A stretch of DNA of 32,000 bases from a virus, in the IMG/VR virus record IMGVR_UViG_3300037608_000250, positions 2,590-34,589 of that record, one strand, 5' to 3'. This document shows, piece by piece, positions 2,841-24,371 of this stretch. The position numbers and the translations under genes are program-made. Under the pieces are notes generated by a model that was not told the DNA's origin, made no database searches, and saw only the letters and a list, made by a program, of their open reading frames with translations. The first letter of the stretch is position 1. Each line of letters opens with the position of its first letter.

Positions 2841-3389
2841 TTGGACTTTCTTGACAGAACATCACATCCACACACTTTGGATTGGATTGGAATTGAACGC
2901 TTAGGAAGAGTTCGTAATAACCTCATAATCAATTATCCCAACACCACTGTTGATCTCGGTTTCAAACATTATACACTTGTCGAGCCGTCCGAAAACGCGT
3001 TGGACAAGCTGGAAAAATTCACACCCGATGAAAGTGGTATGTTGATCAAGAATACTGTTCTGGACGATTTCGGCACACCAACCGTCCTTGCTACATGGCT
3101 TGTGCGTGATGGCTACGGATTCACTTCTTCTGTCGAGGAGCTCGACCTCGTGGGATACAAGGGATATTTCATCGGCAAGCACCTGTACCTCATCGACCCA
3201 AATTTGTCACAAGCGGCAATTGAGGCGATCGTCGTGAAATATGAAACTGACGGCAACTTTAACCCGGAGAATGTGGTCCTCTTTGGCTACAGCTTCACAT
3301 GGACGGAAACCGAGCAGCTGCAAACAAACCTGAAACGGCTGAAAGATACGGAGAAGAATCTACGTGTTAATTTCGACATTCGTTATTAA
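2841..3389 (+). CDS. mod: C-terminal ~180 codons of the same Type III Mod, in the same reading frame as 1329..2795
   Basis: 1329 and 2841 are in the same frame, and the only stop between them is TAA 2793-2795. The sequence ...TLDWIGIERLGRV...DLGFKHYTL...VLATWLVRDGYGF... matches the usual Mod C-terminal region that follows the QLPE box. The annotated TTG start has no SD. Confidence 0.7.
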   Translation: MDFLDRTSHPHTLDWIGIERLGRVRNNLIINYPNTTVDLGFKHYTLVEPSENALDKLEKFTPDESGMLIKNTVLDDFGTPTVLATWLVRDGYGFTSSVEELDLVGYKGYFIGKHLYLIDPNLSQAAIEAIVVKYETDGNFNPENVVLFGYSFTWTETEQLQTNLKRLKDTEKNLRVNFDIRY

Positions 3390-7320: not shown

Positions 7321-7346
7321 AAAAAAGGACAATTCGTAATTGTCCT
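7321..7346 (-). terminator. Rho-independent terminator of the repressor gene
   Basis: Minus strand: AGGACAATT-ACG-AATTGTCCT followed by TTTTTT. The hairpin begins at the repressor stop codon. Confidence 0.65.
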
Positions 7347-7671
7347 ATTTCTTTTCTTTATCCTTTGTTGCCCGATACACGGCGAGAAACGCCTCGACGG
7401 CTATGCGCTCTTCCTCAGTTGCTGGACCAATCGACCAGTCCTCCCGGATGACAAGTGTGCCTTGTCTCGGGTCTTCTGTTCTTCCAAGTAGATAATCGAC
7501 GGAGACATCAAAGTAATCGGCTAAGAGAGATAGTTTGTCAGCGGATGGCTTGGAACGGCCCATTTTCCATTCGGTGAAGTTGCTGGCAGGAATACCAGCT
7601 CCGTTTGCAACTTCTCTTGCTGTTTTTTTTGATCTCTTTATTAAATCAAAAATCCGCTGAACAACATCCAT
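7345..7671 (-). CDS. XRE-family HTH repressor (CI-like lysogeny repressor)
   Basis: HTH_3 pattern KKTAREVANGAGIPASNFTEWKMGRSKPSADKLSLLADYFDVSVDYLLGR. I prefer ATG 7671 (GGAG SD 8 nt upstream) over the TTG 7677 of the ORF track. It is divergent from a Cro-like gene. Confidence 0.8.
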   Translation of the reverse strand: MDVVQRIFDLIKRSKKTAREVANGAGIPASNFTEWKMGRSKPSADKLSLLADYFDVSVDYLLGRTEDPRQGTLVIREDWSIGPATEEERIAVEAFLAVYRATKDKEKK

Positions 7672-7703
7672 CAACAATACTCCAAATATAATACTTCAGT
7701 ATA

Positions 7704-7738
7704 CAGTTTTCTGTATTTACAAATCCAGAATCCTGTAT
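7704..7738. promoter_or_regulatory. Putative operator pair in the immunity region
   Basis: CAG-N4-CTGTAT occurs twice, 22 nt apart (7704-7716 CAGTTTTCTGTAT and 7726-7738 CAGAATCCTGTAT). The first copy is part of the perfect palindrome ATACAGTTTTCTGTAT (7701-7716). The pair lies about 30 nt upstream of the repressor start. Confidence 0.4.
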
Positions 7739-7808
7739 TATTCTCTTCTTGCACGGCTTTACAAAACACAACCATAAAGTGCCATCACTGCCGTGCAGCA
7801 GGTGGGAA

Positions 7809-7850
7809 GGCGTAAACTGCGACAAATATACCCAATTCGTAGTTTACGCC
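7809..7850. repeat. Perfect 10-bp inverted repeat GGCGTAAACT / AGTTTACGCC with a 22-nt spacer, upstream of the Cro-like gene
   Basis: Read directly from the sequence. It lies 48 nt upstream of ATG 7898. Function (operator or RNA hairpin) is unknown. Confidence 0.6.
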
Positions 7851-7897
7851 AAACGCCTGTGCAGGTCAACAACAACCGTACAGAAGGGAGGAAAGGC

Positions 7898-8098
7898 ATG
7901 TTCGGAGAGAACGTACGCAGGCTCCGCGAAGCCCGCGGCTGGAGCCTGGAGCAGTTTAGCGAGAAATGTGGTGTCAGCTTCAGCATGATTGCACAGGTCG
8001 AGCGCGGCCTCCGTGCACCCAGCCTGAGCCTTGCGGCAATGATTGCCGATGTGCTGGGCGTAACGCTGGATTACCTGCTCAAACACCGCGCGGCCTGA
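7898..8098 (+). CDS. Cro-like XRE-family HTH protein (66 aa)
   Basis: AGGGAGGAAAGG SD directly upstream of ATG 7898. Sequence: MFGENVRRLREARGWSLEQFSEKCGVSFSMIAQVERGLRAPSLSLAAMIADVLGVTLDYLL. The longer ORF-track start at 7793 lacks an SD. Confidence 0.8.
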   Translation: MFGENVRRLREARGWSLEQFSEKCGVSFSMIAQVERGLRAPSLSLAAMIADVLGVTLDYLLKHRAA

Positions 8099-13229: not shown

Positions 13230-13490
13230 ATGAATCTCTACAAAGTTCAAAACGGGGATGAGGAATGTTGTGTATTCGTGTTCGCGAAATCGAGGGGCAG
13301 AGCGAAAGTGCTGTTTTCAGAGTATTTTGAGGGTTGGGGCTGGGGCGCTCACAAGAATGATCTCTTTCTGGCTGCAAGAACGAAGCTGATGAGCAAGGAC
13401 GTTGGAGGCAGCGAGGAAGTATGCGACGAAGACTGCAGAAGATTGGCTGCGCTGGGGATCTGCTTCCTGCCCGACATGGAGTGCGACTAG
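13230..13490 (+). CDS. Hypothetical protein (86 aa)
   Basis: Starts 1 nt after the methyltransferase stop. No family recognised. Confidence 0.45.
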   Translation: MNLYKVQNGDEECCVFVFAKSRGRAKVLFSEYFEGWGWGAHKNDLFLAARTKLMSKDVGGSEEVCDEDCRRLAALGICFLPDMECD

Positions 13491-13491
13491 C

Positions 13492-14541
13492 ATGAACAAA
13501 ACGAAAATCGATTGGGCAGATATGACATGGAATCCCGTAACCGGATGCCTGCACGGTTGCGAATACTGCTATGCACGGAGAATCGCTCAGAGGTTTGGCA
13601 ATAGCATCATTACGCCTGAAGAAGCAAAAAGCATGATGGAAATTGTCCTCGGTTATGAAGAAGGCGTCGAATTCGAGATAAGCAGAAGCGGTGTGGCTCT
13701 TAGTAAGCCTGTTCATTCGTTTGAAACAAAAGTGGCGTATCCCTTTGGGTTTGCGCCTACGTTTCATCGATACCGCCTGAAGGAACCGCAGCACATAAAA
13801 AAGCCGCAGAGGATCTTCGTTTGTTCAATGGCGGATCTGTTCGGCGACTGGGTTTCTGATCAATGGGTTCATGAGGTGTTTACCGCGTGCGAGAAGGCGC
13901 CATGGCACCAGTATCTGTTTTTAACAAAGAACGGAGAGAGATATGAGCAATTAGGGCTCCTTCCGGACAAAGACAATTTCTGGTATGGAACAACGCGCAC
14001 AGGCGCTTCATCGAGACTTGAGCACGGAGCATCAGACCATGGAAATACGTTCTTGTCGATTGAGCCTATTCTTGCGCCGCTGGATGAAGTAACTCTTGGA
14101 GCTATTGAGTTCTGGGACTGGGTCATCATTGGCGCGGAAACCGGCAGCCGCAAAGGCAAGGTGAATCCGAAGCGGGAGTGGGTCGAGCGCATTGCAAACA
14201 CCTGCCTTGCTGCGGAAGTACCGGTATTCATGAAATCAACGTTTCGGGAACTCATGGGCAAGGACTTCATTCAGCAGACACCGTGGGATAGGTTATCGAA
14301 AGAATCGGCGAGGGAGGAAAAAGGTAGAGCGTCATCAGTCCATGACCGCATAGCACCTGAATGCGCCGGCATCGTGAGCGTCGCGGTCAAGCGCGATATC
14401 CCCGGCAAGTTCCATATCCTGCAGCAGCTTGAACACGTAAAGGACATCCAGCCGGGAGTGCTTTGCGACATCGACGACATTGATGCCCGGCCGGTCCATG
14501 ACGATATTGTAGAGGCGAAGTTCGAAAGTGTTCATGGATGA
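13492..14541 (+). CDS. Phage Gp37/Gp68 family protein (DUF5131) with a CX3CX2C cluster and an unusually long C-terminal tail
   Basis: MNKTKIDWADMTWNPVTGCLHGCEYCYARR is the family's signature N-terminus. The domain appears to end near ...VPVFMKS...TPWD (~14290), yet the frame stays open to 14541. I prefer ATG 13492 over the ORF-track start at 13402. Confidence 0.7.
   Translation: MNKTKIDWADMTWNPVTGCLHGCEYCYARRIAQRFGNSIITPEEAKSMMEIVLGYEEGVEFEISRSGVALSKPVHSFETKVAYPFGFAPTFHRYRLKEPQHIKKPQRIFVCSMADLFGDWVSDQWVHEVFTACEKAPWHQYLFLTKNGERYEQLGLLPDKDNFWYGTTRTGASSRLEHGASDHGNTFLSIEPILAPLDEVTLGAIEFWDWVIIGAETGSRKGKVNPKREWVERIANTCLAAEVPVFMKSTFRELMGKDFIQQTPWDRLSKESAREEKGRASSVHDRIAPECAGIVSVAVKRDIPGKFHILQQLEHVKDIQPGVLCDIDDIDARPVHDDIVEAKFESVHG
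14335..14535 (-). CDS. Possible 66-aa winged-helix protein, antisense to the tail of the Gp37/Gp68 ORF
   Basis: MNTFELRLYNIVMDRPGINVVDVAKHSRLDVLYVFKLLQDMELAGDIAL reads like a wHTH, but no SD lies upstream. It is mutually exclusive with, or overlaps, the plus-strand reading. Confidence 0.3.
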   Translation of the reverse strand: MNTFELRLYNIVMDRPGINVVDVAKHSRLDVLYVFKLLQDMELAGDIALDRDAHDAGAFRCYAVMD

Positions 14542-14661: not shown

Positions 14662-14991
14662 TTGCTTCGTTCAGCCATGGAGGTCGGCGAGCGCAGGTTG
14701 AGGGTGGCACCATCAAAGACGGCAGCGAGAACTAAGCTCGAGGATGATATGGCCAAATTGGATGAATTGGAGAGAGCGCTAATCAGCGAGGTTATTTTAT
14801 ATGAAGACATGATTAGAGATGTTGATGACCATATTGGAGAGATGCCCAAACTCGCTAGCCAAATTCTTTCTCTCCGTGTGATTAAAGCATTAAACTGGGC
14901 AAAAATAGCAAAAGCAACGGACTATAGTGTAAGACAGTGCCAAAGAATATATTCGACATATTCAGAAAAAGTGTTTGTTAAAGGAGAATAA
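14662..14991 (+). CDS. Sigma-70 region-4-like phage transcription regulator (DUF1492-like); the ancestral ORF probably starts at TTG 14599
   Basis: C-terminus PKLASQILSLRVIKALNWAKIAKATDYSVRQCQRIY is a region-4-type HTH. An in-frame upstream segment with a GGGAGG SD (14585-14590) is separated from it only by TAA 14650-14652. Confidence 0.6.
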   Translation: MLRSAMEVGERRLRVAPSKTAARTKLEDDMAKLDELERALISEVILYEDMIRDVDDHIGEMPKLASQILSLRVIKALNWAKIAKATDYSVRQCQRIYSTYSEKVFVKGE

Positions 14992-15044
14992 CTATTGGGA
15001 TTCAAACGTTCCCAGGAAGATATCCCTTACATGATAAAAAATAC

Positions 15045-15081
15045 TTGAAAAAAATCTCCCTATAAATTATAATAAATTATA
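15045..15081 (+). promoter_or_regulatory. Consensus sigma-70/SigA promoter with an overlapping tandem repeat (possible operator)
   Basis: TTGAAA (15045-15050), a 17-nt spacer, then TATAAT (15068-15073). ATAAATTATA occurs twice in tandem (15062-15081). It lies about 45 nt upstream of the DUF4258 gene. Confidence 0.55.
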
Positions 15082-15117
15082 GTATTTTATAATATTTATA
15101 AAAAGGGGGAAGATAGC

Positions 15118-15435
15118 TTGTGCCAAATTGCCATAGAATGGATAAGAAAACAAGTTCAAAAATATGATTATATGCCCTCGCAACATGCTATTGGACGAAT
15201 GGGAGAAAGACAGATTACGTTTGAGCAGATAGAAGATTGCATACTCAATGGTGATGTCGTTGAATGTAATGACTTCCCCGATCAGGACGTTTGTATTGTC
15301 TTCAAACCAAGAGGACGAAATGATTACTATGTAGTTGTTGCGGCTACACTTCCCTGCACAATAGTTACAGTATGCAATCCGAGACCAGACTGCTGGATTC
15401 TTGAACATCAGACTATGATGAGGAGAAAAAAATGA
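15118..15435 (+). CDS. DUF4258-family protein (putative toxin component)
   Basis: AAAGGGGGA SD. MPSQHAIGRMGERQITFEQIEDCILNGDVVE fits the DUF4258 H-A..R..ER.I core. It overlaps the next gene by 4 nt. Confidence 0.7.
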   Translation: MCQIAIEWIRKQVQKYDYMPSQHAIGRMGERQITFEQIEDCILNGDVVECNDFPDQDVCIVFKPRGRNDYYVVVAATLPCTIVTVCNPRPDCWILEHQTMMRRKK

Positions 15436-15887
15436 ATAACATCAAATGCCATATCTGCAATACCGAAATGGAAGCAAAGGAGACTTCAATTTCTGCGGGT
15501 TGGGGGAAATACAAGGTAGATATAAGTGGCGTTACCGGATACGTATGTCCAAATTGCGGAGAGGTCATCTATTCTTCTGAGGAAGCTAAAATGATCCTAA
15601 AACTTGGTCAGGAAATGTCAGCTTTAAACAATCCGCCTGACTTATTAAATATTTCTGAAGTTGCGGATCTTTTACGGGTCAGTCAGCAAACAATTTACAA
15701 TAAAATTCGGGATGGAAGTCTAAAAGCAAGGAAGATAGGTCGTGAATGGCGATTCTTTAGAAAGGATATTCAAGCTTATCTTGATGAACCGAGCTTCGGC
15801 AATGCTCTGCTTGCAGCAAGAAACAGTGGGGATGCAATAACCCAAAAGGATCAAGAAGTCATCAAGCGCGAGATGGAGGATATGTAG
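15432..15887 (+). CDS. Zinc-ribbon (YgiT/MqsA-type) + HTH_17 DNA-binding protein (putative antitoxin/regulator)
   Basis: CHICNTEM...YVCPNCGEVIYSSEEA is a CxxC...CxxC ribbon. The C-terminus LLNISEVADLLRVSQQTIYNKIRDGSLKARKIGREWRF is an excisionase-type HTH. Confidence 0.75.
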   Translation: MNNIKCHICNTEMEAKETSISAGWGKYKVDISGVTGYVCPNCGEVIYSSEEAKMILKLGQEMSALNNPPDLLNISEVADLLRVSQQTIYNKIRDGSLKARKIGREWRFFRKDIQAYLDEPSFGNALLAARNSGDAITQKDQEVIKREMEDM

Positions 15888-16658
15888 ATGGTACGGCCGC
15901 TTCCGAAGAGTATTGCCCAGCATCTTGTTGAAGATGCTGGGCTCAATAATCCGGTAGACCTTTTCGCTTTCTGTGAATCCATCGAGATAAATACTGTTTT
16001 TTGTGATATTGATGCGGAAGCGCTTCTGGTATGTAAGGATGGGAAACGCAAAATCGTGTTAAAGAGAAATATTATTCCACCAAGAACGAGATTCTCGATT
16101 GCTCATGAATTGGGACATTTCTTTATTCCTTGGCATGTTCGCCTACTCTATCTCTGTAACGAAAAAGACATAATGCGCAACGGGGGCAAAATTGAAGAGA
16201 ACGAAGCGAATGCCTTTGCAGCAGAACTTCTAATGCCCGAAAGAATCTTAAAAGACAATAGGCTCACACAGTGTAATCTGGAAACGATCGGTTATTTATC
16301 GTCTATATGTAAAGTATCCATGACCGCAGCCGCAATTAGGTTAAATGATTGTGTTGATCAAGAAGTCGCGATCGTATTCTGTAAAGGCAAGGATGTACTG
16401 TGGACGAACGTTGGGAAGCTTTTTCCTGGACGGATAAGAAGAGAAAGGCCATATAGTGAAACAATAAAAGACTTGAAAACAGATTGCTTGCACTCACACT
16501 CACGCTCAAGAAAAATCCGTGGTCAATCCTGGCTTTTAAACTATCCGGACGCAACTCTAACTGAGCAAATGATTCTTATGCCCGGTTTTGATGGTATACT
16601 GACAATCCTACGATTCGAAGATGCTGATGATTTTGAAGAAAAAGATCTTGATTGGTAA
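15888..16658 (+). CDS. ImmA/IrrE-family zinc metallopeptidase (Peptidase_M78-like)
   Basis: HEXXH box FSIAHELGHFFIPWH, followed by EANAFAAELLMP, typical of ImmA/IrrE. The start abuts the upstream stop (TAGATG). Confidence 0.8.
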   Translation: MVRPLPKSIAQHLVEDAGLNNPVDLFAFCESIEINTVFCDIDAEALLVCKDGKRKIVLKRNIIPPRTRFSIAHELGHFFIPWHVRLLYLCNEKDIMRNGGKIEENEANAFAAELLMPERILKDNRLTQCNLETIGYLSSICKVSMTAAAIRLNDCVDQEVAIVFCKGKDVLWTNVGKLFPGRIRRERPYSETIKDLKTDCLHSHSRSRKIRGQSWLLNYPDATLTEQMILMPGFDGILTILRFEDADDFEEKDLDW

Positions 16659-16752
16659 TTGCTGTTGGGTTTCGCAAAACGTCGCAGAATGTCGCACCCA
16701 AAAGTAGTAATATGATACCATCGGACCAACTGGGACGATGATTTAGAATCAT

Positions 16753-16781
16753 AGAGACCGAGCAGAAAACGCTCGGTCTCT
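16753..16781. terminator. Perfect 11-bp hairpin between convergent genes (probable bidirectional terminator)
   Basis: AGAGACCGAGC-agaaaac-GCTCGGTCTCT. The T-tracts are weak on both sides. Confidence 0.6.
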
Positions 16782-16826
16782 TCATGTTTCTATAAATATA
16801 GTGATATGCCAATAAGAAAGATGTGT

Positions 16827-17057
16827 TCATTCGACTTGCTTTCCTTGATCGTCATGCCAGTACACCCTGAAGCAACCGCTTTGGAATACACTATTATCCG
16901 GATAGGCTTTTTCAAGTTTTTTGATTGCCTCAAAGTCACTGCAACGTTCCATTTGATGTGACTTAGTGCTGAAGCAATTATCCAATGGGCCAGAGTCAAA
17001 TTGCGCATTTACTGCGTCTATAAAGGCGGGGACATTGGATGCAAACACGTAAAGCAT
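16827..17057 (-). CDS. Hypothetical 76-aa protein
   Basis: Strong GAGGAGG SD 7 nt upstream of the ATG. Low GC. The palindrome TTGCTTtAAGCAA (17081-17093) lies upstream. No family recognised. Confidence 0.6.
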   Translation of the reverse strand: MLYVFASNVPAFIDAVNAQFDSGPLDNCFSTKSHQMERCSDFEAIKKLEKAYPDNSVFQSGCFRVYWHDDQGKQVE

Positions 17058-17203
17058 AGCATTAGCCTCCTCTCATAATTGCTTTAAGCAAATCTTATCA
17101 CAAGAGGGTAAAGGATTTCTCCCCACATTCGGATGATAATCAGAAGCTATAATGCAAATCTATTTCATTATTGACATAACAGTACACAATTAAGGAGACA
17201 GAA

Positions 17204-17728
17204 ATGAGCAGAGTTGATGAAATGAAGAGATATATTGATCAAGCTGTACAAACCGCCTTTGAGGCAGGGCGGCTATCATACGCCCAAACTCAAAAGGATG
17301 CATACAAGGCGACAGAGCGAAGACTCTACGCTATCCCAATTCTGAAAGCCAGGCTGATAGAAGAGCAAGACCACCTTGCCGAACTAATCTCTTCACAGGC
17401 ACCAGAGAAGATCAGTCGTAGTCTGGATGTTGTGCGCCTTCGGCGAGGGGGGAGAAGACTTTCGGATGAGGATCTCTTGAAAGCACAGATCCAATACTCC
17501 GAATCCATGATCGCGAGCATGGAACACGAAATCGGCGAGGTAGAAAATGGGCTGGAGCGGATTCGGCCGGATTTCTATTATCGTACAGTGCCGATGAAGT
17601 ATTTCGATGGTTTGACGGATGATATAGCTGCAGAAATTCTAAAGTGCGATCCCAGTACAATTCGGCGCAATAGATCAAGATTGGTAAAGTATATTGCTAT
17701 ATGGTTTTATGGGGTAACGGCTTTATGA
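17204..17728 (+). CDS. Putative phage late-gene regulator (sigma-70 region-4-like HTH; ArpU/RinA-like)
   Basis: AAGGAGA SD. C-terminus YYRTVPMKYFDGLTDDIAAEILKCDPSTIRRNRSRLVKYI is a region-4-type HTH. Its position ahead of the packaging genes fits this role. Confidence 0.55.
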   Translation: MSRVDEMKRYIDQAVQTAFEAGRLSYAQTQKDAYKATERRLYAIPILKARLIEEQDHLAELISSQAPEKISRSLDVVRLRRGGRRLSDEDLLKAQIQYSESMIASMEHEIGEVENGLERIRPDFYYRTVPMKYFDGLTDDIAAEILKCDPSTIRRNRSRLVKYIAIWFYGVTAL

Positions 17729-17781
17729 TTGAATTTGGTTTTTGAAAGGATCTAGTATCGATATGCACCATAAAAAAAATA

Positions 17782-17790
17782 TGCTATTAT
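17782..17790 (+). promoter_or_regulatory. Extended -10-like element TGCTATTAT upstream of the four-gene island
   Basis: TGnTATTAT at 17782-17790 with no good -35. An alternative is TTGACT (17812-17817) with a weak -10. Low-confidence call. Confidence 0.25.
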
Positions 17791-17868
17791 GTTCTCGTTA
17801 GGATGATTATCTTGACTGTGTGGTCAGATTTCTCTGATTTATTTCAATTAAAATAGGAGGCAATTCAT

Positions 17869-18261
17869 ATGGGATCAACAGGTACGGGGAGATTTGGAAA
17901 TTATAGAATTGGATTAGCTTCAGGAGATGGTAAAAATTCAAAGGAAGATTCTATGAGTACTAAAGAGTTTATTTGTCCTGACAATATTGAGTTCATTCAA
18001 ATCGAGGATGTGGCGATTTCCGAATATTTTACAAAGCATAACAGCCTACCGGCGCAACACACTTCAGTAAGATTGAAAAGAGCTCTTGAATTCGGCAGAC
18101 TTGTTATCGAAACATCAGAAAGCTCAGAAACAATTGGTAATTTGCCAACGCAGTATAATTATCTCCTTGAGTGTATCTATAGAGGGAAGACATATTCGGG
18201 TCAGGTTTTAGCATCTGGAGTTGATCCCATCCCATATGTGGTGGTGAATTTGAGTGCATAA
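17869..18261 (+). CDS. Hypothetical 130-aa protein with a Gly-rich N-terminal tail; first gene of the island operon
   Basis: AGGAGG SD 8 nt upstream. MGSTGTGRFGNYRIGLASGDGKNSKE is followed by a compact domain. No family recognised. Confidence 0.65.
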   Translation: MGSTGTGRFGNYRIGLASGDGKNSKEDSMSTKEFICPDNIEFIQIEDVAISEYFTKHNSLPAQHTSVRLKRALEFGRLVIETSESSETIGNLPTQYNYLLECIYRGKTYSGQVLASGVDPIPYVVVNLSA

Positions 18262-19576
18262 TCGACGGATCCTAGTTGTTGGCGAAGTTTTTGTTGATCT
18301 CCATCTCGATTTGTTAAGTGGACATAGTCCACTGGCAAGACTGGGTGGTATTTTTCATACCGCAAGAGCCTTGTCGACTTATAAACTTGAATTCGCGCTG
18401 GCCCACATTTCACCCGATTACCTTGACGAAGACATTAATCTTTACAGTTGTAAGCTAAATAGCATTGGATGCTATAGAATCGGAATAATTAGAAAAGCCA
18501 CAAACATACTACTTGTTTCTGATTCAAAGGAGGTTGGCTTTCAAGGGTACTATAATGTTCTTAAGGATCAAGCAGAGTATATAAACGACATGGATTTCCG
18601 ACAAGTTCTTTGTCGAGTCAAACCCACTGACGTTATTCTTTTTCCTGGACGGTACGACACAATTAGGGTGCTGAATGAATTAAAAAATTTTGATGCCAGT
18701 TTGCATATTGACTGCCACTATGATAGTGATAATCTTTTAACAGAGTTTAACGGAAATATCTCTACTTTATTTCTGTCAACATCAGCAGATATTTTCCGTA
18801 ATACATGCAACGGAAATCTCGAAAAAATACTGGATTTCTATTCTCGAAATAACATAGAAAGAATAGTTGTAAAAGAGAGTCGAGGGGGATCATTCTGTTA
18901 TGATTATGCAACAAAAGACATCCATGAAGCACCCGCTTTTCACGTCCACACAATGCACTCTGTTGGAGTTGGAGATGTATTTGATGCTTGTTTCGTTGGA
19001 TATTTAGACAATTATGACATTCAGAACAGAATGAAGCTTGCATCTTATTGTGCTGCCCAATATGCTGCGACATTATCATTCGAATGCTTTCAGGAATCTG
19101 TGCAATCAATTTGTGGACATGAAAAAGAGATCTTATCTCTTCAAGGTATCAGACTATCGTGGGATGATAGGGGCAAAAAAAATATCTATATTGCCGCGCC
19201 AGATTTTCCGGATGTTGATACAAGTTTATTGGACAAACTAGTCGAATGCTTAGAGTATCATAACTTCAGACCCCGACTTCCAATAAGAGAAAATGGCTTG
19301 GCAGATAAATCAATCAGCATTGAAGATGAATTTAAACTCTATAAAAAAGATATCGCTTTGCTTCAAGAATGTGATCTTCTAATAGCCGTTTTGCTTTTTA
19401 ATGATCCTGGAACACTAGTTGAACTAGGGATGTTTAAACAAATGGGTAAACCAACAATAGTATTTGATCCATTTGGGATCTGCACCAATATGTTTGTTAA
19501 ACATACACCTGACTATTTGTGTGTATCGATTGAAGATGTGCTCGTTTCCTCATATATCTCTCTTCAAAGGAGATAA
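18254..19576 (+). CDS. Fusion protein: PfkB-family kinase domain + nucleoside 2-deoxyribosyltransferase/DNPH1-like domain
   Basis: N-terminal half: RILVVGEVFVD, LARLGGIFHTARAL and SVGVGDVFDACFVGY (PfkB GAGD box). C-terminal half (~19166-19573): KNIYIAAPDF and CDLLIAVLLFNDPGTLVELGMFKQMGKPTIVF (the NDT-type DxGTxxExG box). The GTG start overlaps the upstream ORF by 8 nt. Confidence 0.85.
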   Translation: MHNRRILVVGEVFVDLHLDLLSGHSPLARLGGIFHTARALSTYKLEFALAHISPDYLDEDINLYSCKLNSIGCYRIGIIRKATNILLVSDSKEVGFQGYYNVLKDQAEYINDMDFRQVLCRVKPTDVILFPGRYDTIRVLNELKNFDASLHIDCHYDSDNLLTEFNGNISTLFLSTSADIFRNTCNGNLEKILDFYSRNNIERIVVKESRGGSFCYDYATKDIHEAPAFHVHTMHSVGVGDVFDACFVGYLDNYDIQNRMKLASYCAAQYAATLSFECFQESVQSICGHEKEILSLQGIRLSWDDRGKKNIYIAAPDFPDVDTSLLDKLVECLEYHNFRPRLPIRENGLADKSISIEDEFKLYKKDIALLQECDLLIAVLLFNDPGTLVELGMFKQMGKPTIVFDPFGICTNMFVKHTPDYLCVSIEDVLVSSYISLQRR

Positions 19577-19583
19577 CTAATTA

Positions 19584-20219
19584 ATGGATAATTACGATGG
19601 CCTCTTATTAGCTTCTGGTGGCATGGATTCAACCGTTTTGTCTTATGATTTAAACGAGAAGGGGGAGAATATCCTACTATTATTCCTTGATTATGGTCAA
19701 CACTGCATGAAACAAGAGTATGATACATTACTTCAAGTTGTACCGGAAACCTATAGAGAACATATAAAGGTTTTGAATATTAGTGATATATATTTTGGGT
19801 CAAACTCCAGAATGATAAAAGAAGCTGATCTATGGAAGGAACAAGTTGTAGCAGATGACTTATACTTACCGTATCGGAATTTGCTCTTTATCTCCATTGC
19901 ATCTGCCTTTGCACAATCGAAAGGCATAAAGAAAGTATACTCTGCCTTTATAAACAGTAACCATGCGAAAGAAATTGATTGTTCAATGCAGTTTTTTACT
20001 GAGCTGGAAATGATATTAAGAAGTTATGGGTCGATTAAGCTTTGTATGCCCTATCGCGAAATGTCAAAAACTCAAGTTGCTAAACTTGGCTTAAAACTAG
20101 GTGCCCCGATTTGTTTGACATATTCGTGTCAAGTTAACTCACATAGACCATGCGGAGCATGCCCAAATTGTGTTGATAGAATCGAAGCCTTGAATAATGT
20201 AGTTCTTGGTAGAGAGTAA
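19584..20219 (+). CDS. QueC-like PP-loop ATP-pyrophosphatase family protein
   Basis: LLASGGMDSTVLSYDL (SGGxDS), LFLDYGQH, YLPYRNLLFISIA, and C-terminal SCQVNSHRPCGACPNCVDR (a C-x7-C-x2-C-x2-C zinc site). AAGGAG SD. Confidence 0.85.
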   Translation: MDNYDGLLLASGGMDSTVLSYDLNEKGENILLLFLDYGQHCMKQEYDTLLQVVPETYREHIKVLNISDIYFGSNSRMIKEADLWKEQVVADDLYLPYRNLLFISIASAFAQSKGIKKVYSAFINSNHAKEIDCSMQFFTELEMILRSYGSIKLCMPYREMSKTQVAKLGLKLGAPICLTYSCQVNSHRPCGACPNCVDRIEALNNVVLGRE

Positions 20220-20869
20220 TGGATAATACTTGTTTAAATAAATATGTTATTCTATTAAGTGACTTTATATTAAGTATTGAGACTGATTTTATTCCGTTTG
20301 ATGATCAATCTCCGTATTATCATATGGGAGCAACTCTTACTGATTCCATTTTGCAAGCAGGCATCAATTATAAACATGTTGTTTTGCCACGAGTTAATAA
20401 GTTGCTTACTCAATACTCAAGTTTTAATACAACATGTGATTTTATTATACTCATGGATATGATACCACTTGAAGAGCTGATTAATTGGAAGAATAAAGAG
20501 AAGCTTGTTCGAATCGAAGAATTGACATGGTTAATGTATAGAAATGGTATTAACAATGAGAATGAGCTTGCTGAATGGTTGTCCATATCAGATAATTTGG
20601 AGGAATTAATCAGAATAAAAGGTGTCGGGCCTAAAACTGTTGACTATATATGTATGCTGGCAGGCATACAGTCTTTTGCCATAGATAGACATCTATATAG
20701 CTTTCTTGAAATGTCAGGAATTTATATAAAGACGTATCAGGAAGCCATCAGAATATATACTGCAACATCTGAATACTTAAACATTAACAAGTACCAGCTT
20801 GACAAAAATATTTGGACATATATGTCAACAAAAAATCCGCAAGTAGCAAATAACATCGATAGTTTTTAA
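20219..20869 (+). CDS. HhH-GPD superfamily DNA glycosylase-like protein (EndoIII/OGG-like, no Fe-S Cys cluster)
   Basis: LTDSILQAGINY... then LIRIKGVGPKTVDYICMLAGIQSFAIDRHLYSF. The hairpin-helix GVGxKT retains the Lys and the downstream Asp is retained. The ATG overlaps the upstream TAA (TAATG). Confidence 0.75.
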   Translation: MDNTCLNKYVILLSDFILSIETDFIPFDDQSPYYHMGATLTDSILQAGINYKHVVLPRVNKLLTQYSSFNTTCDFIILMDMIPLEELINWKNKEKLVRIEELTWLMYRNGINNENELAEWLSISDNLEELIRIKGVGPKTVDYICMLAGIQSFAIDRHLYSFLEMSGIYIKTYQEAIRIYTATSEYLNINKYQLDKNIWTYMSTKNPQVANNIDSF

Positions 20870-20938
20870 ATGCGGGTCCTTCCAAGGGTGGAGGGGCATG
20901 CGGGGCTGGCGACTCCCGGAATATCTCTCGCTCTGATA

Positions 20939-20968
20939 AAAAAAGCGGAAGCACTTCCTTCCGCTTTT
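20939..20968 (+). terminator. Rho-independent terminator closing the island operon (A-run/T-run flanks, so possibly bidirectional)
   Basis: AAAAAA-GCGGAAG-cacttc-CTTCCGC-TTTT. Confidence 0.7.
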
Positions 20969-21239
20969 ACTACGCGCAAACTCCCTGCTATAGGCAAATT
21001 CAGAATTGAAAAGCGGAAATGACTAAGCAAACTCTCATACAATTTGGGATGATCTATCTCACAGATCAGCCGGCGCAGATATCCCAAAGTAGAAATCGTT
21101 CTCTGCGTGTATCAGTTGGCCATAGTTCTTTGTTTCTGGTATTTCGTTCTATACTGTGCTAGAATTGGGCAATTGAGCAAAACGGTAGTCTTTATTTAAA
21201 AAACAAAGCCAAGATCATAGATATTATGCTTAAAAGTTA

Positions 21240-21268
21240 TTGCGCATTAGTGCAAATTGGAATATAAT
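21240..21268 (+). promoter_or_regulatory. Sigma-70-type promoter with an overlapping imperfect palindrome (TA operator candidate)
   Basis: TTGCGC (21240-21245), a 17-nt spacer, then TATAAT (21263-21268). TTGCGCattaGTGCAA spans the -35. It lies 28 nt upstream of the toxin ATG. Confidence 0.55.
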
Positions 21269-21295
21269 ATAGACGATTCGGAGGGGTAATTCGGG

Positions 21296-21667
21296 ATGTT
21301 TCGCATAAACTTTTATGCAGATGCGAATGGAAGGCAGCCTGTAAAAGAATATCTGGATGATTTACGAAGCTCTTCCGAGACGAACAAAGATGACAGAATC
21401 AGATTGAAAAAGATAACTGAGTACATGGATGTACTCGCCGCAAACGGAACCAGAGCTGGAAAACCCTATGTTGAGCATATTGACGGGGATATCTGGGAAC
21501 TGCGTCCGCTTAGCACAAGGATCTTCTTCTTTTGCTGGTTAGGCGATAAGTTCATAATGCTGCATCATTTCGAAAAGAAGACAAGAAAAACACCTGAGCG
21601 AGAGAAAGAAAAGGCAAAACGCGAAATGAAGGACTTCATCCAAAGGAGTGAGAAACGTGAGAAATAA
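21296..21667 (+). CDS. Phage Gp49-like (DUF891) RelE/HigB-family toxin
   Basis: GRQPVKEYLDDL...GKPYVEHIDGDIWELRP...RIFFFCWLGDKFIMLHHFEKKTRKTPEREKEKA is the classic Gp49-family pattern. GGAGGGG SD. Confidence 0.85.
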   Translation: MFRINFYADANGRQPVKEYLDDLRSSSETNKDDRIRLKKITEYMDVLAANGTRAGKPYVEHIDGDIWELRPLSTRIFFFCWLGDKFIMLHHFEKKTRKTPEREKEKAKREMKDFIQRSEKREK

Positions 21668-21956
21668 AGTCGTGTCCCCTATTGGAGACGATTGGAGCGA
21701 ATACAGAGAGACTCTCTTGACACCTGAGGAGCGGGCAGAAATTGATGTCAAGGTCGCTATTATAAGCATGCTCATCCAAGCACGACAAGATAAGGGCATT
21801 ACCCAAAAACAACTGGAGCAGATTAGCGGCGTCAAGCAACCTGTGATTGCCCGACTTGAAAAAGGCAAAACAGACCCGCAACTCTCGACACTGATCAAAG
21901 TATTGGCTCCTTTGGGCAAAACGGTAGCCATTGTGCCACTTCCGGTAGAGCATTAA
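21657..21956 (+). CDS. XRE-family HTH antitoxin (HigA-like)
   Basis: ARQDKGITQKQLEQISGVKQPVIARLEKGKTDPQLSTLIKVLAPLG. I prefer GTG 21657 (GGAG SD 9 nt upstream). It overlaps the toxin's 3' end. Confidence 0.8.
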   Translation: MRNKVVSPIGDDWSEYRETLLTPEERAEIDVKVAIISMLIQARQDKGITQKQLEQISGVKQPVIARLEKGKTDPQLSTLIKVLAPLGKTVAIVPLPVEH

Positions 21957-21961
21957 ACGCC

Positions 21962-22004
21962 GCGCAAAGTGAACGCACAAAAACTGCACAAGACAATCGC
22001 ACAA
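21962..22004. repeat. Four phased GC(A/G)CAA repeats between the TA pair and terS
   Basis: GCGCAA 21962, GCACAA 21975, GCACAA 21986 and GCACAA 21999, spaced 13, 11 and 13 nt apart. Candidate protein-binding array (cosB-like or activator site). Confidence 0.35.
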
Positions 22005-22041
22005 ACCTAAGATATACTGCCAATAGAATAGAAAAACTATC

Positions 22042-22070
22042 AAAAAGCCGGGCGAAAGCCCGGTTTTGTT
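22042..22070 (+). terminator. Rho-independent terminator 14 nt upstream of the terS start
   Basis: AAAAA-GCCGGGC-gaaa-GCCCGGT-TTTGTT. Confidence 0.65.
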
Positions 22071-22084
22071 GTTGAGGTTGGGCA

Positions 22085-22612
22085 ATGATCGAATGCAATC
22101 AGAAAGAATTGTCGAGGATCCTTGGCCTTTCGGACCGGCGGGTACGCCAGATGGCGGAGGACGGTCTTTTCGAGCGCGATCCGGTGACGAAGAAATACAA
22201 CCTGCCGAAATGCGTACAGGAATTCATCCGATACAAAGTGGAGCTGGAATCGACGGCGCCAATCGCTGTGAACTTCGAAACTGAACGGGCTGAGCACGAG
22301 CGGGTAAAGAAGGATATCGCCAAGCTCAAGCTCCGGCGATACCGCGGCGAGCTCCATGAAGCTTCTGAGATCGAGGCTGAGCTCAGCGACATGCTGATCC
22401 GGTTCCGTGGCAAGATTTTGGCCATTCCAACCAAGCTCGCTCCGCAGCTGCTGGGAATGACTGATCCGAACACTATTGTCCGGATACTGAAGAACGAACT
22501 TCGGGAAACCTTGACGGAACTCTCCGGATATAATCCGGTCGTCAAAGAGCCCCTCAGGGAAGAGATTGATGATGAAGGAGAAGACAGCGAATCTGATTCG
22601 GCGGATCTGTAG
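22085..22612 (+). CDS. Terminase small subunit (Nu1-like, N-terminal HTH)
   Basis: CNQKELSRILGLSDRRVRQMAEDGLF...KYNLPKCVQEFIRYK resembles the Nu1 N-terminal wHTH. Acidic C-terminus. Lies directly upstream of a GpA-type TerL. Confidence 0.7.
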   Translation: MIECNQKELSRILGLSDRRVRQMAEDGLFERDPVTKKYNLPKCVQEFIRYKVELESTAPIAVNFETERAEHERVKKDIAKLKLRRYRGELHEASEIEAELSDMLIRFRGKILAIPTKLAPQLLGMTDPNTIVRILKNELRETLTELSGYNPVVKEPLREEIDDEGEDSESDSADL

Positions 22613-24371
22613 GGACTGCCTGATCCCGCCTCCGGAGCTGACGGTTTCGAAGTGGGCGGAGAAGTACAGAATCCTCGACAACGCAAGCGCATACCCGGGA
22701 CGATGGAGCAACAGCGTGACGCCGTACCTTACCGGCATCATGGACGAATACTGCAACCCGTATACACGGGAGATCATCTTCTGCAAACCGACTCAGGTCG
22801 GCGGTACCGAGGCCATGCTCAATATGCTCGGATACTCGATCATGATGGACACCGCGCCCACCATGGTGGTCGAGCCTACCGACGCGCTCGCGATTTCTGT
22901 TGCGGAACACCGGTTCCAAACGATGGTCGAGAAATGCCCAGAGCTGAGGGCCTTAAAGAATGTCCGCAGGTCGCGGCGGCTCGAACAGCGGTTCTCCGGA
23001 ATGACTCTGTATTTTAACGGTGCGAACAGCCCGAGCAAACTGGCATCCAGAGCAATTAAAAACTTGTTCCTGGATGAATCGGATAAGTTCCCGGGCGCGT
23101 CCAGAAAAGAAGCGTCGCCTTACAAACTGGCGAGGGAGAGGACGAAGACATATCCTCTCAACAGAAAGATCTTCGACAACTGCACCCCGACACTGAAAAC
23201 GGGACATATATGGGACGCGAAAGAAAATGCCGACGTAGAGCGGCATTTTTTTGTGCCTTGTCCGCACTGTAAAGAAATGATCGAGCTCTTCTTCAAGCAG
23301 ATCATCTTCCCTGCCGGCGAGGGTTTGACCAACGCCGAACGCGCTGAGCAGGCACTTTACTTTTGCCAGAGCTGCGGAACCGCGATCGAGGACGCACACA
23401 AGCCGGGGATGCTCCGTTTGGGTGAATGGAGAGAGATCAGGCGCCGGATTGGAGGCAGGCTCCAGCCGAAAACGGTCGCGTTCTGGATGAACACGCTGTA
23501 TTCGCCGTTCGTGACCTGGACGGATATTGCAAGAGAGTTTCTCGATTCGAAAGACGATCCCGAAACGCTTCAGAACTTCGTCAATGCCTGGCTTGCCGAA
23601 CCCTGGGAGAATACCAAGTCCAGCACCGACGCCGATCTGGTCATGGAGAGGCAAACGGAGTACCCCGAGAATGAGGTGCCGGACTGGGCTGAGATCCTTG
23701 TCGGAGCTGCCGACGTTCAGGAAACGTCTATCTTCTGGACAATCAGGGCATGGGGCAAGCATATGACCAGCCAGAATATTGCGCACGGGCAGGCGCTGGG
23801 ACTCCACGATCTCGATGAGATTATGAACCTGTTCTACAAGAAGCGCGACGGTACCCAGATGCAGGTTGCGCTGTGCGCAATCGACTCAGGCGATCAGACC
23901 GGCGAGGTATACGAATTCTGTGCAGCGAGGGCCGAGTGGGCGATCCCGGTCAAGGGGTCGGCGAGGGCACTTCTGGGCAACTACACGATTTCAACGATTG
24001 ACAAACCGGACAGCAAAGCGCACGGCCAGCGGCTTGTGCTTATCGACACGGCAAAATACAAGAGCGCCATCGCATGGCGCCTGCGCAAGGACCCGGGACA
24101 AGGATCATGGATGGTTTTCAAGGGCTGCGATCAGGCATACGCCGAGCAGGTCACTGCGGAGCAGCTCGTTACCGGCAAGACCGGCGATACATGGGTACCG
24201 AAAACAACGCATGCAGCTAACCACTATCTCGACGCGGAAGTATATAACTTCGTGGCGGCAGACTTGTGCGGCGTGCGTTACCTCTATCTGCGGGATGCGC
24301 CTGTGGTTAAAGCGGAGCGCAACGATGAGATTCCGCAGCAGGACTGGATTCCAAACAAAAGCGACTGGTAG
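22566..24371 (+). CDS. Terminase large subunit, lambda GpA family
   Basis: 601 aa. The N-terminus LIRRICRDCLIPPPELTVSKWAEKYRIL aligns by eye with the lambda gpA N-terminus. Walker-like CKPTQVGGTEAML. The start overlaps the terS 3' end by 47 nt. Confidence 0.9.
   Translation: MMMKEKTANLIRRICRDCLIPPPELTVSKWAEKYRILDNASAYPGRWSNSVTPYLTGIMDEYCNPYTREIIFCKPTQVGGTEAMLNMLGYSIMMDTAPTMVVEPTDALAISVAEHRFQTMVEKCPELRALKNVRRSRRLEQRFSGMTLYFNGANSPSKLASRAIKNLFLDESDKFPGASRKEASPYKLARERTKTYPLNRKIFDNCTPTLKTGHIWDAKENADVERHFFVPCPHCKEMIELFFKQIIFPAGEGLTNAERAEQALYFCQSCGTAIEDAHKPGMLRLGEWREIRRRIGGRLQPKTVAFWMNTLYSPFVTWTDIAREFLDSKDDPETLQNFVNAWLAEPWENTKSSTDADLVMERQTEYPENEVPDWAEILVGAADVQETSIFWTIRAWGKHMTSQNIAHGQALGLHDLDEIMNLFYKKRDGTQMQVALCAIDSGDQTGEVYEFCAARAEWAIPVKGSARALLGNYTISTIDKPDSKAHGQRLVLIDTAKYKSAIAWRLRKDPGQGSWMVFKGCDQAYAEQVTAEQLVTGKTGDTWVPKTTHAANHYLDAEVYNFVAADLCGVRYLYLRDAPVVKAERNDEIPQQDWIPNKSDW

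Follow-up and report, generated by a model that had tools for sequence, protein, structure and literature searches.

Introduction

What might a QueC-like enzyme do beside a helix-hairpin-helix (HhH-GPD) glycosylase in a prophage that holds neither a base-inserting transglycosylase of the TGT family nor the remainder of the 7-deazaguanine pathway? A preliminary description of a 32,000-nucleotide stretch of viral DNA (positions 2,590 to 34,589 of IMG/VR record IMGVR_UViG_3300037608_000250; this whole stretch is called the window below) raised the question by pairing two adjoining open reading frames (ORFs) at 19584-20869. We found that both ORFs are indeed present there and that each is strongly non-random, but that they are only the third and fourth genes of an operon on the + strand (17869-20869) whose two upstream members had been overlooked. 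We refer to the four genes, in order, as A, B, C and D, where C encodes the QueC-like enzyme and D the glycosylase. Together they almost certainly form a conserved four-gene unit, and we suggest, at a probability of roughly 0.4, that this cassette belongs to a 'deazaguanylation' type of anti-phage (conflict) system, in which C would attach a 7-deazaguanine base to the N-terminus of A, and B and D would respectively make and break a glycosidic bond on the attached base.

Protein deazaguanylation was discovered in 2025 in the accessory module of the type IV cyclic-oligonucleotide-based anti-phage signalling system (CBASS) (Wassarman et al. 2025, bioRxiv 10.1101/2025.04.06.647259; Science 389:1347). 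There the ligase Cap9 joins 7-carboxy-7-deazaguanine (CDG) to Gly2 of the CD-NTase, whose N-terminus begins MGGSGGSFGSGF..., to give an N-terminal 7-amido-7-deazaguanine (NDG); the TGT-like Cap10 then binds the base, and an OGG-like Cap11, found in about a third of the operons, has been proposed as a negative regulator (10.1101/2025.04.06.647259). In the Qat system the evidence is indirect: QatC requires an MGTS N-terminus and G2 of its partner QatB (PMC13279940). The papers found to use the term deazaguanylation all do so in connection with type IV CBASS or Qat, and the cassette studied here appears to be a third, simpler and undescribed version built on the same logic.

A conserved four-gene cassette

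In the window gene A (17869-18261, 130 aa) is preceded by a ribosome-binding site, AGGAGG, which we read directly from the sequence at 17855-17860, 8 nt before the ATG. It overlaps by 8 nt the GTG-initiated gene B (18254-19576, 440 aa); a gap of 7 nt separates B from C (19584-20219, 211 aa), and D (20219-20869, 216 aa) shares 1 nt with C, its ATG overlapping the C stop codon. A terminator-like hairpin, also a sequence reading, follows 75 nt past the stop of D at 20944-20969 on the same + strand (AGCGGAAG, a 6-nt loop, CTTCCGCT, then TTTA). Given the ribosome-binding site before A, the overlaps and short gaps, and the hairpin after D, the four genes are packed in the manner of an operon. A consensus promoter and terminator scan gave no difference from shuffled sequence, and this hairpin was not caught by it owing to its short T tract.

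The window itself is a prophage: a CI/Cro-like switch lies at 7345-8098 and a gpA-type large terminase at 22566-24371, followed by the portal and capsid genes. The cassette is placed in an accessory region just upstream of the terminase genes, within a stretch of low guanine plus cytosine (G+C) content at 14900-22100. The G+C of the cassette block is 33-42%, against 53-58% in the surrounding phage core genes, and it rises sharply from the hairpin onward. Moreover, a related phage whose TerL is 77% identical has 1.5 kb at the place where the window holds 7.1 kb. The A-B-C-D block is foreign, low-G+C cargo within the prophage; a search for repeats around it gave neither att-like nor flanking ones.

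Outside the window we located the cassette by scanning one genome per species with B. A single B sequence as query found nothing, whereas an alignment of 23 B sequences returned 62 loci in Bacillota, Bacteroidota, Pseudomonadota, Planctomycetota, Verrucomicrobiota, Chloroflexota, Cloacimonadota, TM6 and other phyla. In profile searches of the ORFs at these loci, A-B-C-D occur in the same order and on the same strand in 48 of the 62, a further 12 have A-B-C without D, and the remaining two are truncated contigs; apparent matches of C on every B protein were excluded here, as fusions of B and C had entered the C profile. Such fusions, single proteins of 653-665 aa, were seen in six Bacillales loci and are classic evidence of functional coupling. 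They are found in Bacillaceae at L023, L024 (5968-7965), L025, L028, L029 and L030 and on a plasmid (L073, 5980-7956), and RefSeq names the fusion of about 660 aa 7-cyano-7-deazaguanine synthase.

The gene order is likewise kept on megaplasmids of Cupriavidus and B. cereus, on a plasmid of Neotabrizicola and in a Proteus mirabilis entry (about 4.08 Mb) of a plasmid collection. IMG/VR has few contigs with the cassette (9 B loci among 2.9 million contigs), and there too the order is the same. No match to B was found by tblastn in 50,697 phage genomes, and the DNA from 17000 to 22000 matched these genomes only over 185 nt of a helix-turn-helix gene; among 5,426 complete E. coli genomes, none matched the DNA of the Proteus cassette. 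Chromosomes or plasmids carry most of the copies, in defence islands. RefSeq names the four proteins, in order, hypothetical, nucleoside 2-deoxyribosyltransferase, 7-cyano-7-deazaguanine synthase and hypothetical.

Protein C, a QueC-family enzyme with Cap9-like features

Protein C matches Pfam QueC (PF06508, E 1.6e-33), as expected of a QueC-family ATP-pyrophosphatase/ligase. The intact ATP-PPase loop and four-Cys zinc site reported in the preliminary description are confirmed by this match and by conservation, since the P-loop S11-G-G-M-D-S16 and the zinc cysteines C182, C190, C193 and C196 are invariant across 28 homologues. Whether C is simply a housekeeping QueC had been raised there as a question, and we find it to be distinct: it scores 92.9 bits against a TIGR00364 cutoff of 150.3 and 26.6 bits against the PRK11106 cutoff of 378, and its family has a substrate-site signature of its own, an invariant AFINSNHAKEIDC set against the YPDC of canonical QueC. 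In fact, when the canonical QueC motifs YxQxHxxE, VPxRN and YPDC are taken from PMC13329287, the C family has YGQHC(x)3E, [LI]PYRN and NSNHAKEIDC in their place, so that only RN and DC are retained.

The best PDB match of C as a single sequence is Cap9 (9nto_B, E 4.9e-12), with B. subtilis QueC (3bl5) at 4.6e-5; the family profile gives 60 bits for Cap9 and 54 and 45 bits for QueC, and leaves QatC unmatched. Following the descriptions in PMC13329287, C also shows the Cap9-type spacings [YF]xQ(x)5E, RN, DC, P[FY](x)4K and C(x)7CxxCxxCxD. By sequence, then, C is a member of a QueC-family clade that is separate from housekeeping QueC and from QatC and that has a Cap9-like motif spacing. Assignment of C to the Gat-QueC or QatC types was rejected, as an amidotransferase domain is missing from it and its scores against QatC models reach only 16-20 bits.

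The conserved N-terminus of protein A

The always-first gene of the cassette encodes a small protein that begins with a disordered tail, MGSTGTGRFGNY in the window. Among 65 unique homologues the N-terminal consensus is M-G-S-[TSA]-G-x-G-x-[FL]-[GST]-[DTN]-Y, where M1, G2, S3 and G5 are invariant (65/65) and G7 is present in 63 of 65. The motif is followed by a hypervariable Gly/Ser-rich linker and then by a conserved domain of about 90 aa. The family comprises 291 clusters among 1.84 billion representative proteins, all of them standalone proteins of about 115-140 aa; in 150 representatives the motif lies at residue 1 in nearly every case, and A is never fused to another domain.

In the predicted structure of A (mean predicted local distance difference test score, pLDDT, 82) the first 30 residues are disordered, and a compact domain rich in beta structure spans residues 35-130. 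The best Foldseek matches of this model in the PDB are the HIRAN domains of lp_0118 (3k2y) and HLTF (4s0n/4xzg), at E 4e-3 to 4e-2 and template-modelling (TM) scores of 0.5-0.69, and a comparison with BFVD returned viral entries named 'HIRAN domain protein' (E 7e-4). A has no Pfam or PADLOC match, and the Pfam HIRAN model matched none of 17 A homologues even at E values up to 5. We therefore speak of residues ~35-130 as a HIRAN-like domain. The HIRAN fold binds DNA 3'-OH ends.

The invariant Met-Gly-Ser start, which recalls the MGGS of the type IV CBASS CD-NTase and the MGTS of QatB, suggests that C modifies a protein, rather than serving the synthesis of a free base or of a DNA base. We give slightly better than even odds to A being the protein acceptor of the 7-deazaguanine base.

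Protein B carries a base-exchanging domain

Gene B encodes what appears to be a fusion of a PfkB-like kinase (residues ~1-300, 18254-19153) with a nucleoside 2-deoxyribosyltransferase (NDT; residues 308-416, 19175-19501), and it is the most conserved protein of the set, with at least 786 homologues, nearly all of about 440 aa. The NDT domain is clear, matching PF05014 at E 4.6e-14 and 53 bits (gathering score 28.8) and the solved structure 6evs at E 2.6e-4 as a single sequence and 2.4e-8 as a family profile, with 8rh3 and 2a0k also found. Its catalytic Asp/Asp/Glu set is intact (D366, D384, E390), and in the motif D384-P-G-T-L-V-E390-L-G the residue E390 aligns with the catalytic Glu of DxGTxxELG in solved NDTs. 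Invariant positions in 23 homologues are G31, G32, H235-S-V-G-x-G-D241, D366, D384, G386, T387, E390 and G392.

The N-terminal half gives weak, sub-threshold matches to the ribokinase family over residues 163-274 and a weak match to 2qcv in the PDB, and PF00294 is recorded for a few homologues. Signs of a PfkB fold are the invariant GG hinge (G31, G32) and HSVGVGD, which would supply the anion hole and the catalytic Asp (D241). On these features the PfkB assignment is a soft one.

NDTs, like TGTs, swap bases on a sugar through a covalent glycosyl-enzyme intermediate. This changes how the missing transglycosylase is to be understood. The preliminary description had noted that no TGT/DpdA, FolE, QueD or QueE is encoded, and a Pfam scan of the non-overlapping ORFs of the window indeed found none of them; the apparent lack of any transglycosylase was, however, an artefact of the coordinates chosen, because B, directly upstream of the described pair, carries the NDT domain of another N-glycosyl transferase family. 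The sole Dpd-related signal in the window, a weak DpdH match on a sigma-like ORF, was judged spurious.

Protein D, a predicted Ogg2/MagIII-like glycosylase

D had been described as an HhH-GPD protein with the catalytic Lys and Asp and without the Fe-S Cys cluster, and this holds on all points. Its AlphaFold model (pLDDT 89) has only HhH-GPD glycosylases among its top 20 Foldseek matches in the PDB, led by SsOgg (3fhg), MagIII (1pu6/1pu7) and MjOgg (3knt) and including EndoIII and MutY. A weak alignment to archaeal Ogg2 (PDB 9o00, E 0.011) places K139 (GVGPKT) and D156 (AIDRH) on the catalytic Lys and Asp, both of which are invariant in 22 homologues, and its three cysteines (C5, C73, C144) are scattered and hence form no Fe-S cluster motif. 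In the Pfam scan D gave no HhH-GPD match (PF00730), and HHH (PF00633) alone was found, at E 0.0056, below its cutoff.

From the model, D is predicted to be an Ogg2/MagIII-like HhH-GPD glycosylase and probably also a lyase. Similar to the archaeal-type Ogg2 and MagIII enzymes it has the same fold, an HhH Gly-x-Gly-x-Lys with the catalytic Asp (IDRH) 17 residues on, and no Fe-S cluster; it differs from them in lacking a significant Pfam HhH-GPD match and in a family-specific, invariant N-terminal HMGATxxDxxLQxG...VVxPRV. Moreover, unlike lone repair genes of the Ogg2/MagIII kind, D is strictly tied to the cassette: its homologues (37-58% identity) directly follow homologues of A, B and C, and the proposed genomic linkage to C is borne out by the 48 of 62 loci in which D stands immediately downstream of it.

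Three loci (L007, 6665-9645; L008; L009) contain distant D homologues (39% identity, P0037) with no adjoining QueC-like gene. Here the order is an N_BRCA1_IG-like protein, a His_Phos_1 histidine phosphatase, the D homologue and an APH-type kinase on the opposite strand, with a type I restriction-modification (R-M) system beside them; this may be a different cassette that employs the same glycosylase family.

Genomic neighbourhood

In many phyla the cassette is found amid anti-phage genes. In oral and gut metagenome contigs it adjoins either a type I-C CRISPR-Cas locus together with Pycsar, transposases and a reverse transcriptase, or a type III R-M system and a ParE/Phd pair; the flanks on pENH92 hold helicase/ATPase and nuclease genes, and the window itself combines a type III R-M system, a HigB/HigA-like pair and prophage surroundings. 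Across the flanks of the 62 loci, PADLOC matched HEC-01A, AbiLi, dGTPase, NsnB/AriA/GajA-like ATPases, mad3 and Old, and Pfam families usual in R-M and abortive infection (Abi) systems were also found. PADLOC (2023) had no match for A, B or D themselves, and the cassette would be a candidate defence system outside its coverage, carried here by a prophage beside its terminase genes. We consider a role in defence or conflict likely.

Clustering of the flanking ORFs brought out three recurrent, co-oriented neighbours: a Nudix gene, a dGTPase-like gene, and an AAA ATPase with a PIN protein. The Nudix gene, similar to the PADLOC candidate PDC-S07, lies 36-102 nt upstream of A in seven of nine Bacillales loci, all nine of which are without D. 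Three of the fusion loci described above (L024, L025, L028) are among those bearing the Nudix gene.

The dGTPase-like gene (HD/HD_assoc) is found on the same strand at either end of the cassette in 8 of the 62 loci, from several phyla, and is adjacent in seven of these and about 2.2 kb away in L054. Its positions are L017:7465-8709, L027:8134-9558, L041:4370-5503, L043:8675-10258, L046:4096-5334, L048:886-2049, L054:1979-3403 and L064:8602-10059. It could be a facultative fifth component, or merely a co-located single-gene defence. OGG-, MutT- and dGTPase-like enzymes act on guanine-type deoxynucleotides, which fits a tethered 7-deazaguanine that is turned into a deoxynucleoside or deoxynucleotide.

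In five Bacteroidota loci (L037, 3807-5622; L038; L044; L045; L068) an NsnB/AriA-like AAA ATPase of about 430 aa and a PIN protein of about 170 aa stand directly upstream of A. This pair probably forms an independent defence module that accompanies the cassette.

Comparison with known systems

The closest parallels are with type IV CBASS. Both have a small QueC-family enzyme, Cap9 being the best PDB match of C and sharing its spacing; a partner with a disordered, Gly/Ser-rich tail that starts Met-Gly-(Gly/Ser) and leads to Phe-Gly; a further enzyme whose family exchanges bases by N-glycosyl transfer; an HhH glycosylase of OGG type that is common yet dispensable; and a defence-island site for an operon without queD, queE or folE. 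In this comparison Cap9 corresponds to C, Cap10 to the NDT domain of B, Cap11 to D and the MG-tailed substrate to A. However, neither the window nor the 62 loci contain a CD-NTase or a cyclic-nucleotide effector in the cassette, and the tailed protein is the HIRAN-like A of 115-140 aa instead of a CD-NTase. The place of the TGT-family Cap10 is taken by a deoxyribosyl-directed NDT fused to a PfkB-like kinase, D has no detectable sequence similarity to known OGG models, and C has a substrate-pocket motif that is its own.

QatABCD also combines a QueC-family enzyme with a small protein whose extreme N-terminus is Met-Gly-(Ser/Thr) on a flexible tail (PMC13279940, PMC13639016, PMC13376578). C differs from QatC (~400 aa) in its size of about 210 aa and in lacking the N- and C-terminal extensions, and it reaches 20 bits against the 280-bit NCBIfam QatC cutoff; nor does the cassette include QatA (a KAP ATPase) or QatD (TatD). 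The preliminary description had proposed that the substrate comes from host queuosine metabolism, which is plausible, as Cap9 and QatC operons likewise lack queD, queE and folE (PMC13329287, 10.1101/2025.04.06.647259, PMC13279940). The Dpd and phage DpdA systems share with the cassette a QueC-family enzyme, 7-deazaguanine chemistry and a conflict setting, whereas they need DpdA/TGT and usually FolE, QueD and QueE, all absent from the window, and the cassette is nearly absent from phage genomes.

Our search of the literature for the A-B-C-D gene combination found only PMC13329287, in which Libby et al. (2026) describe, within PF06508, a 'Cluster 4' of QueC-like proteins beside a PfkB-Nuc_deoxyrib_tr fusion and read it as purine salvage. 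The PF00294-PF05014 fusion is a neighbour in 89% of the Cluster 4 neighbourhoods, and the proteins are slightly shorter than QueC, keep the SGGxDS loop and have a variant Cys motif, all as in C (PMC13329287). The printed motifs are YGQ(x)6E and CH(x)5CxxCxGCxK, as against YGQHCxxxE and CQ(x)6CxxCxxCxD in the C family; judged by sequence the C family is probably Cluster 4, although the printed motifs differ. That paper makes no mention of A, D, a defence-island context or protein modification (PMC13329287); neither A nor D has a Pfam model. If our reading is correct, a QueC subfamily filed under purine salvage, and in RefSeq under 7-cyano-7-deazaguanine synthase, would have to be re-interpreted.

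A possible mechanism and its alternatives

In the deazaguanylation-type system that we propose, C would take CDG from the host queuosine pathway and adenylate its carboxylate. Similar to Cap9, it would then use the free alpha-amine of Gly2 of A, exposed by removal of Met, in place of ammonia, giving an NDG-tagged A that bears the base on a flexible tail of 25-45 residues joined to the HIRAN-like domain. B would stand in the place of Cap10: its NDT domain might bind the tethered purine analogue and put a 2-deoxyribosyl group on the free N9, and its PfkB-like domain might phosphorylate the sugar, yielding a deoxynucleoside or deoxynucleotide attached to the protein, or a link to DNA. D could cleave that N-glycosidic bond and so reset or restrain the system, as proposed for Cap11. 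Such a reversing or regulatory role fits D better than the earlier suggestion that it performs the removal half of a base swap. The specific roles given here to B and to D are, each taken singly, doubtful.

The remaining parts of the cassette have an explicit chemistry: a deoxyribosyl transferase, a sugar- or nucleoside-type kinase and an 8-oxoG-type glycosylase, joined in some lineages by a MutT-like Nudix protein and a dGTPase. Together these parts suggest that the tethered base is glycosylated at N9 and enters deoxynucleotide or DNA chemistry, and they make the fate of the base-tagged N-terminus, and the role of Cap11, in CBASS and Qat directly testable. C7 of 7-deaza-dG is a position that polymerases tolerate. 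In the boldest version of the scheme, B would deoxyribosylate and phosphorylate the NDG on A to make a protein-nucleotide hybrid, or would swap the base onto a DNA 3' end located by the HIRAN-like domain, so that A became covalently joined to replicating phage DNA through a C7-linked 7-deaza-dG and the crosslink blocked replication or packaging; D, or the Nudix and dGTPase partners elsewhere, might then erase or limit adducts on host DNA. We see only an outside chance that this version is right, but if it were, it would reveal the 'next substrate' that has long been sought for the NDG-modified proteins of type IV CBASS and Qat.

Several observations weigh against this overall interpretation. 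Every enzymatic step of the proposed system is deduced from homology and genomic context. About 13 of the 150 best representatives of the A family begin ME[ST] and not MG[ST] (P0220, P0229, P0235, P0241, P0245, P0256, P0263, P0274, P0292, P0295, P0301 and P0306 begin in this way), and as Met is normally retained before Glu, a free Gly2 is not universal in the family. The HIRAN assignment of A is likewise soft, being made at the level of the predicted fold (Foldseek E ~1e-3, TM 0.5-0.7), and the PfkB-like domain of B is divergent, its usual NxxE motif not being evident. For C, the profile score is barely nearer to Cap9 (60 bits) than to canonical QueC (54 bits), and its pocket resembles neither the YPDC of QueC nor the YYDC of Cap9, so that its carboxylate substrate may not be CDG. 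The defence counts in the flanks are raw numbers without a background control and are inflated by one ATPase family that matches many PADLOC models. Finally, the cassette encodes no obvious toxic effector, unless B or A itself serves as one.

Of the other explanations considered, chance adjacency is the least likely. That an ordinary housekeeping queC happens to lie beside an ordinary, functionally unlinked repair glycosylase would agree with the RefSeq label of the C homologues, but the order of the genes holds strictly from phylum to phylum, some lineages have B and C as one protein, C falls under the equivalog cutoff, D lacks a Pfam HhH-GPD match and has its close homologues next to C, and the G+C of the cassette is foreign; the conservation data effectively refute such a coincidence. 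A small-molecule route is more serious, though we hold it to be unlikely. Here C would amidate or nitrilate a free 7-deazapurine carboxylate or another heterocyclic acid, the NDT domain of B would join the free base to 2-deoxyribose and its kinase domain would convert this to a deoxynucleoside 5'-monophosphate (dNMP), bases and nucleotides would be provided or removed by D, Nudix and dGTPase, and A would be an accessory DNA-binding factor; the outcome could be purine or 7-deazapurine salvage (Libby et al. 2026), or a deoxynucleotide antimetabolite poisoning the replication of phages in the manner of viperin products. An NDT joined to a nucleoside-kinase-like domain makes sense as two successive steps that lead from a base to a dNMP, C keeps most of the core QueC motifs, the Nudix and dGTPase neighbours are nucleotide-pool enzymes, and PMC13329287 assigns Cluster 4 and the PfkB-NDT pair to purine salvage. 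Such a route nevertheless leaves unexplained the Cap9-like features of C as well as the invariant MGSxGxG start and disordered tail of the always-first gene A, and salvage in particular is a poor fit with a patchy spread on mobile elements, a foreign G+C and defence-island neighbours.

The want of an obvious effector could instead mean that B is itself the toxin, with C still modifying Gly2 of A. The NDT-like domain would then be a triggered N-glycosidase that depletes NAD+ or dNMPs, and modified A a switch or sensor that keeps B inactive until the HIRAN-like domain meets phage DNA ends. The effector of Retron-Eco1 is an NDT-like, NAD+-hydrolysing enzyme, NDT-like proteins are listed in the literature as retron-associated effectors, and B is the best conserved member of the set. 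Simple depletion would, however, leave without purpose a fused PfkB-like kinase with a conserved catalytic Asp, as well as D, Nudix and dGTPase; the catalytic triad of B matches that of true transferases, although the triad does not separate hydrolase from transferase, and overall we think this role quite improbable. Still less probable is modification of DNA through the nucleotide pool, in which a 7-deaza-dG nucleotide would be made for the DNA of the element or host, so as to evade restriction or mark DNA for it, D would discriminate modified DNA, and dGTPase and Nudix would act like DatZ and MazZ of Z-genome phages. 7-Deazaguanines are known as DNA modifications (PMC13329287), dGTPase and Nudix genes nearby would fit a system that replaces a canonical deoxynucleoside triphosphate, and the cassette of the window does lie in a prophage. 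On the other hand most copies are chromosomal or plasmid-borne in defence islands, no DpdA/TGT or base-synthesis gene is present, dGTPase occurs in just 8 of 62 loci and the invariant N-terminus of A finds no explanation. The absence of B from the 50,697 phage genomes and its mere 9 loci in IMG/VR speak against this rival and make the earlier idea of phage DNA modification by base swapping unlikely too.

Other features of the window

A sigma-70/ECF-like ORF at 17204-17728, just before the operon, was considered as a member of the cassette and rejected, as it has no homologue at any other cassette locus. Further upstream, the ORF at 13402-14541 encodes a protein of the DUF5131 family (phage Gp37/Gp68) that matches radical-SAM weakly and is not QueE. 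The type III R-M system immediately precedes the prophage switch. It encodes a Mod methylase at 1329-2795, the C-terminal domain of an EcoP15I-type Mod at 2841-3389 and Res, of 987 aa, at 3402-6365. Both parts of Mod share a reading frame and are divided by an in-frame TAA at 2793-2795, which indicates that the mod gene is a pseudogene or split. Between the cassette and a small-terminase-like ORF, which as a query had no match among viral contigs, a Gp49 gene (HigB-like, PF05973) and an HTH_3 antitoxin-like gene overlap by 20 nt (21296-21956) and are probably a toxin-antitoxin cargo module. The low-G+C accessory stretch also holds, at 15432-16658, an HTH_17/MqsA-like ORF followed by an M78 (ImmA/IrrE-like) peptidase.

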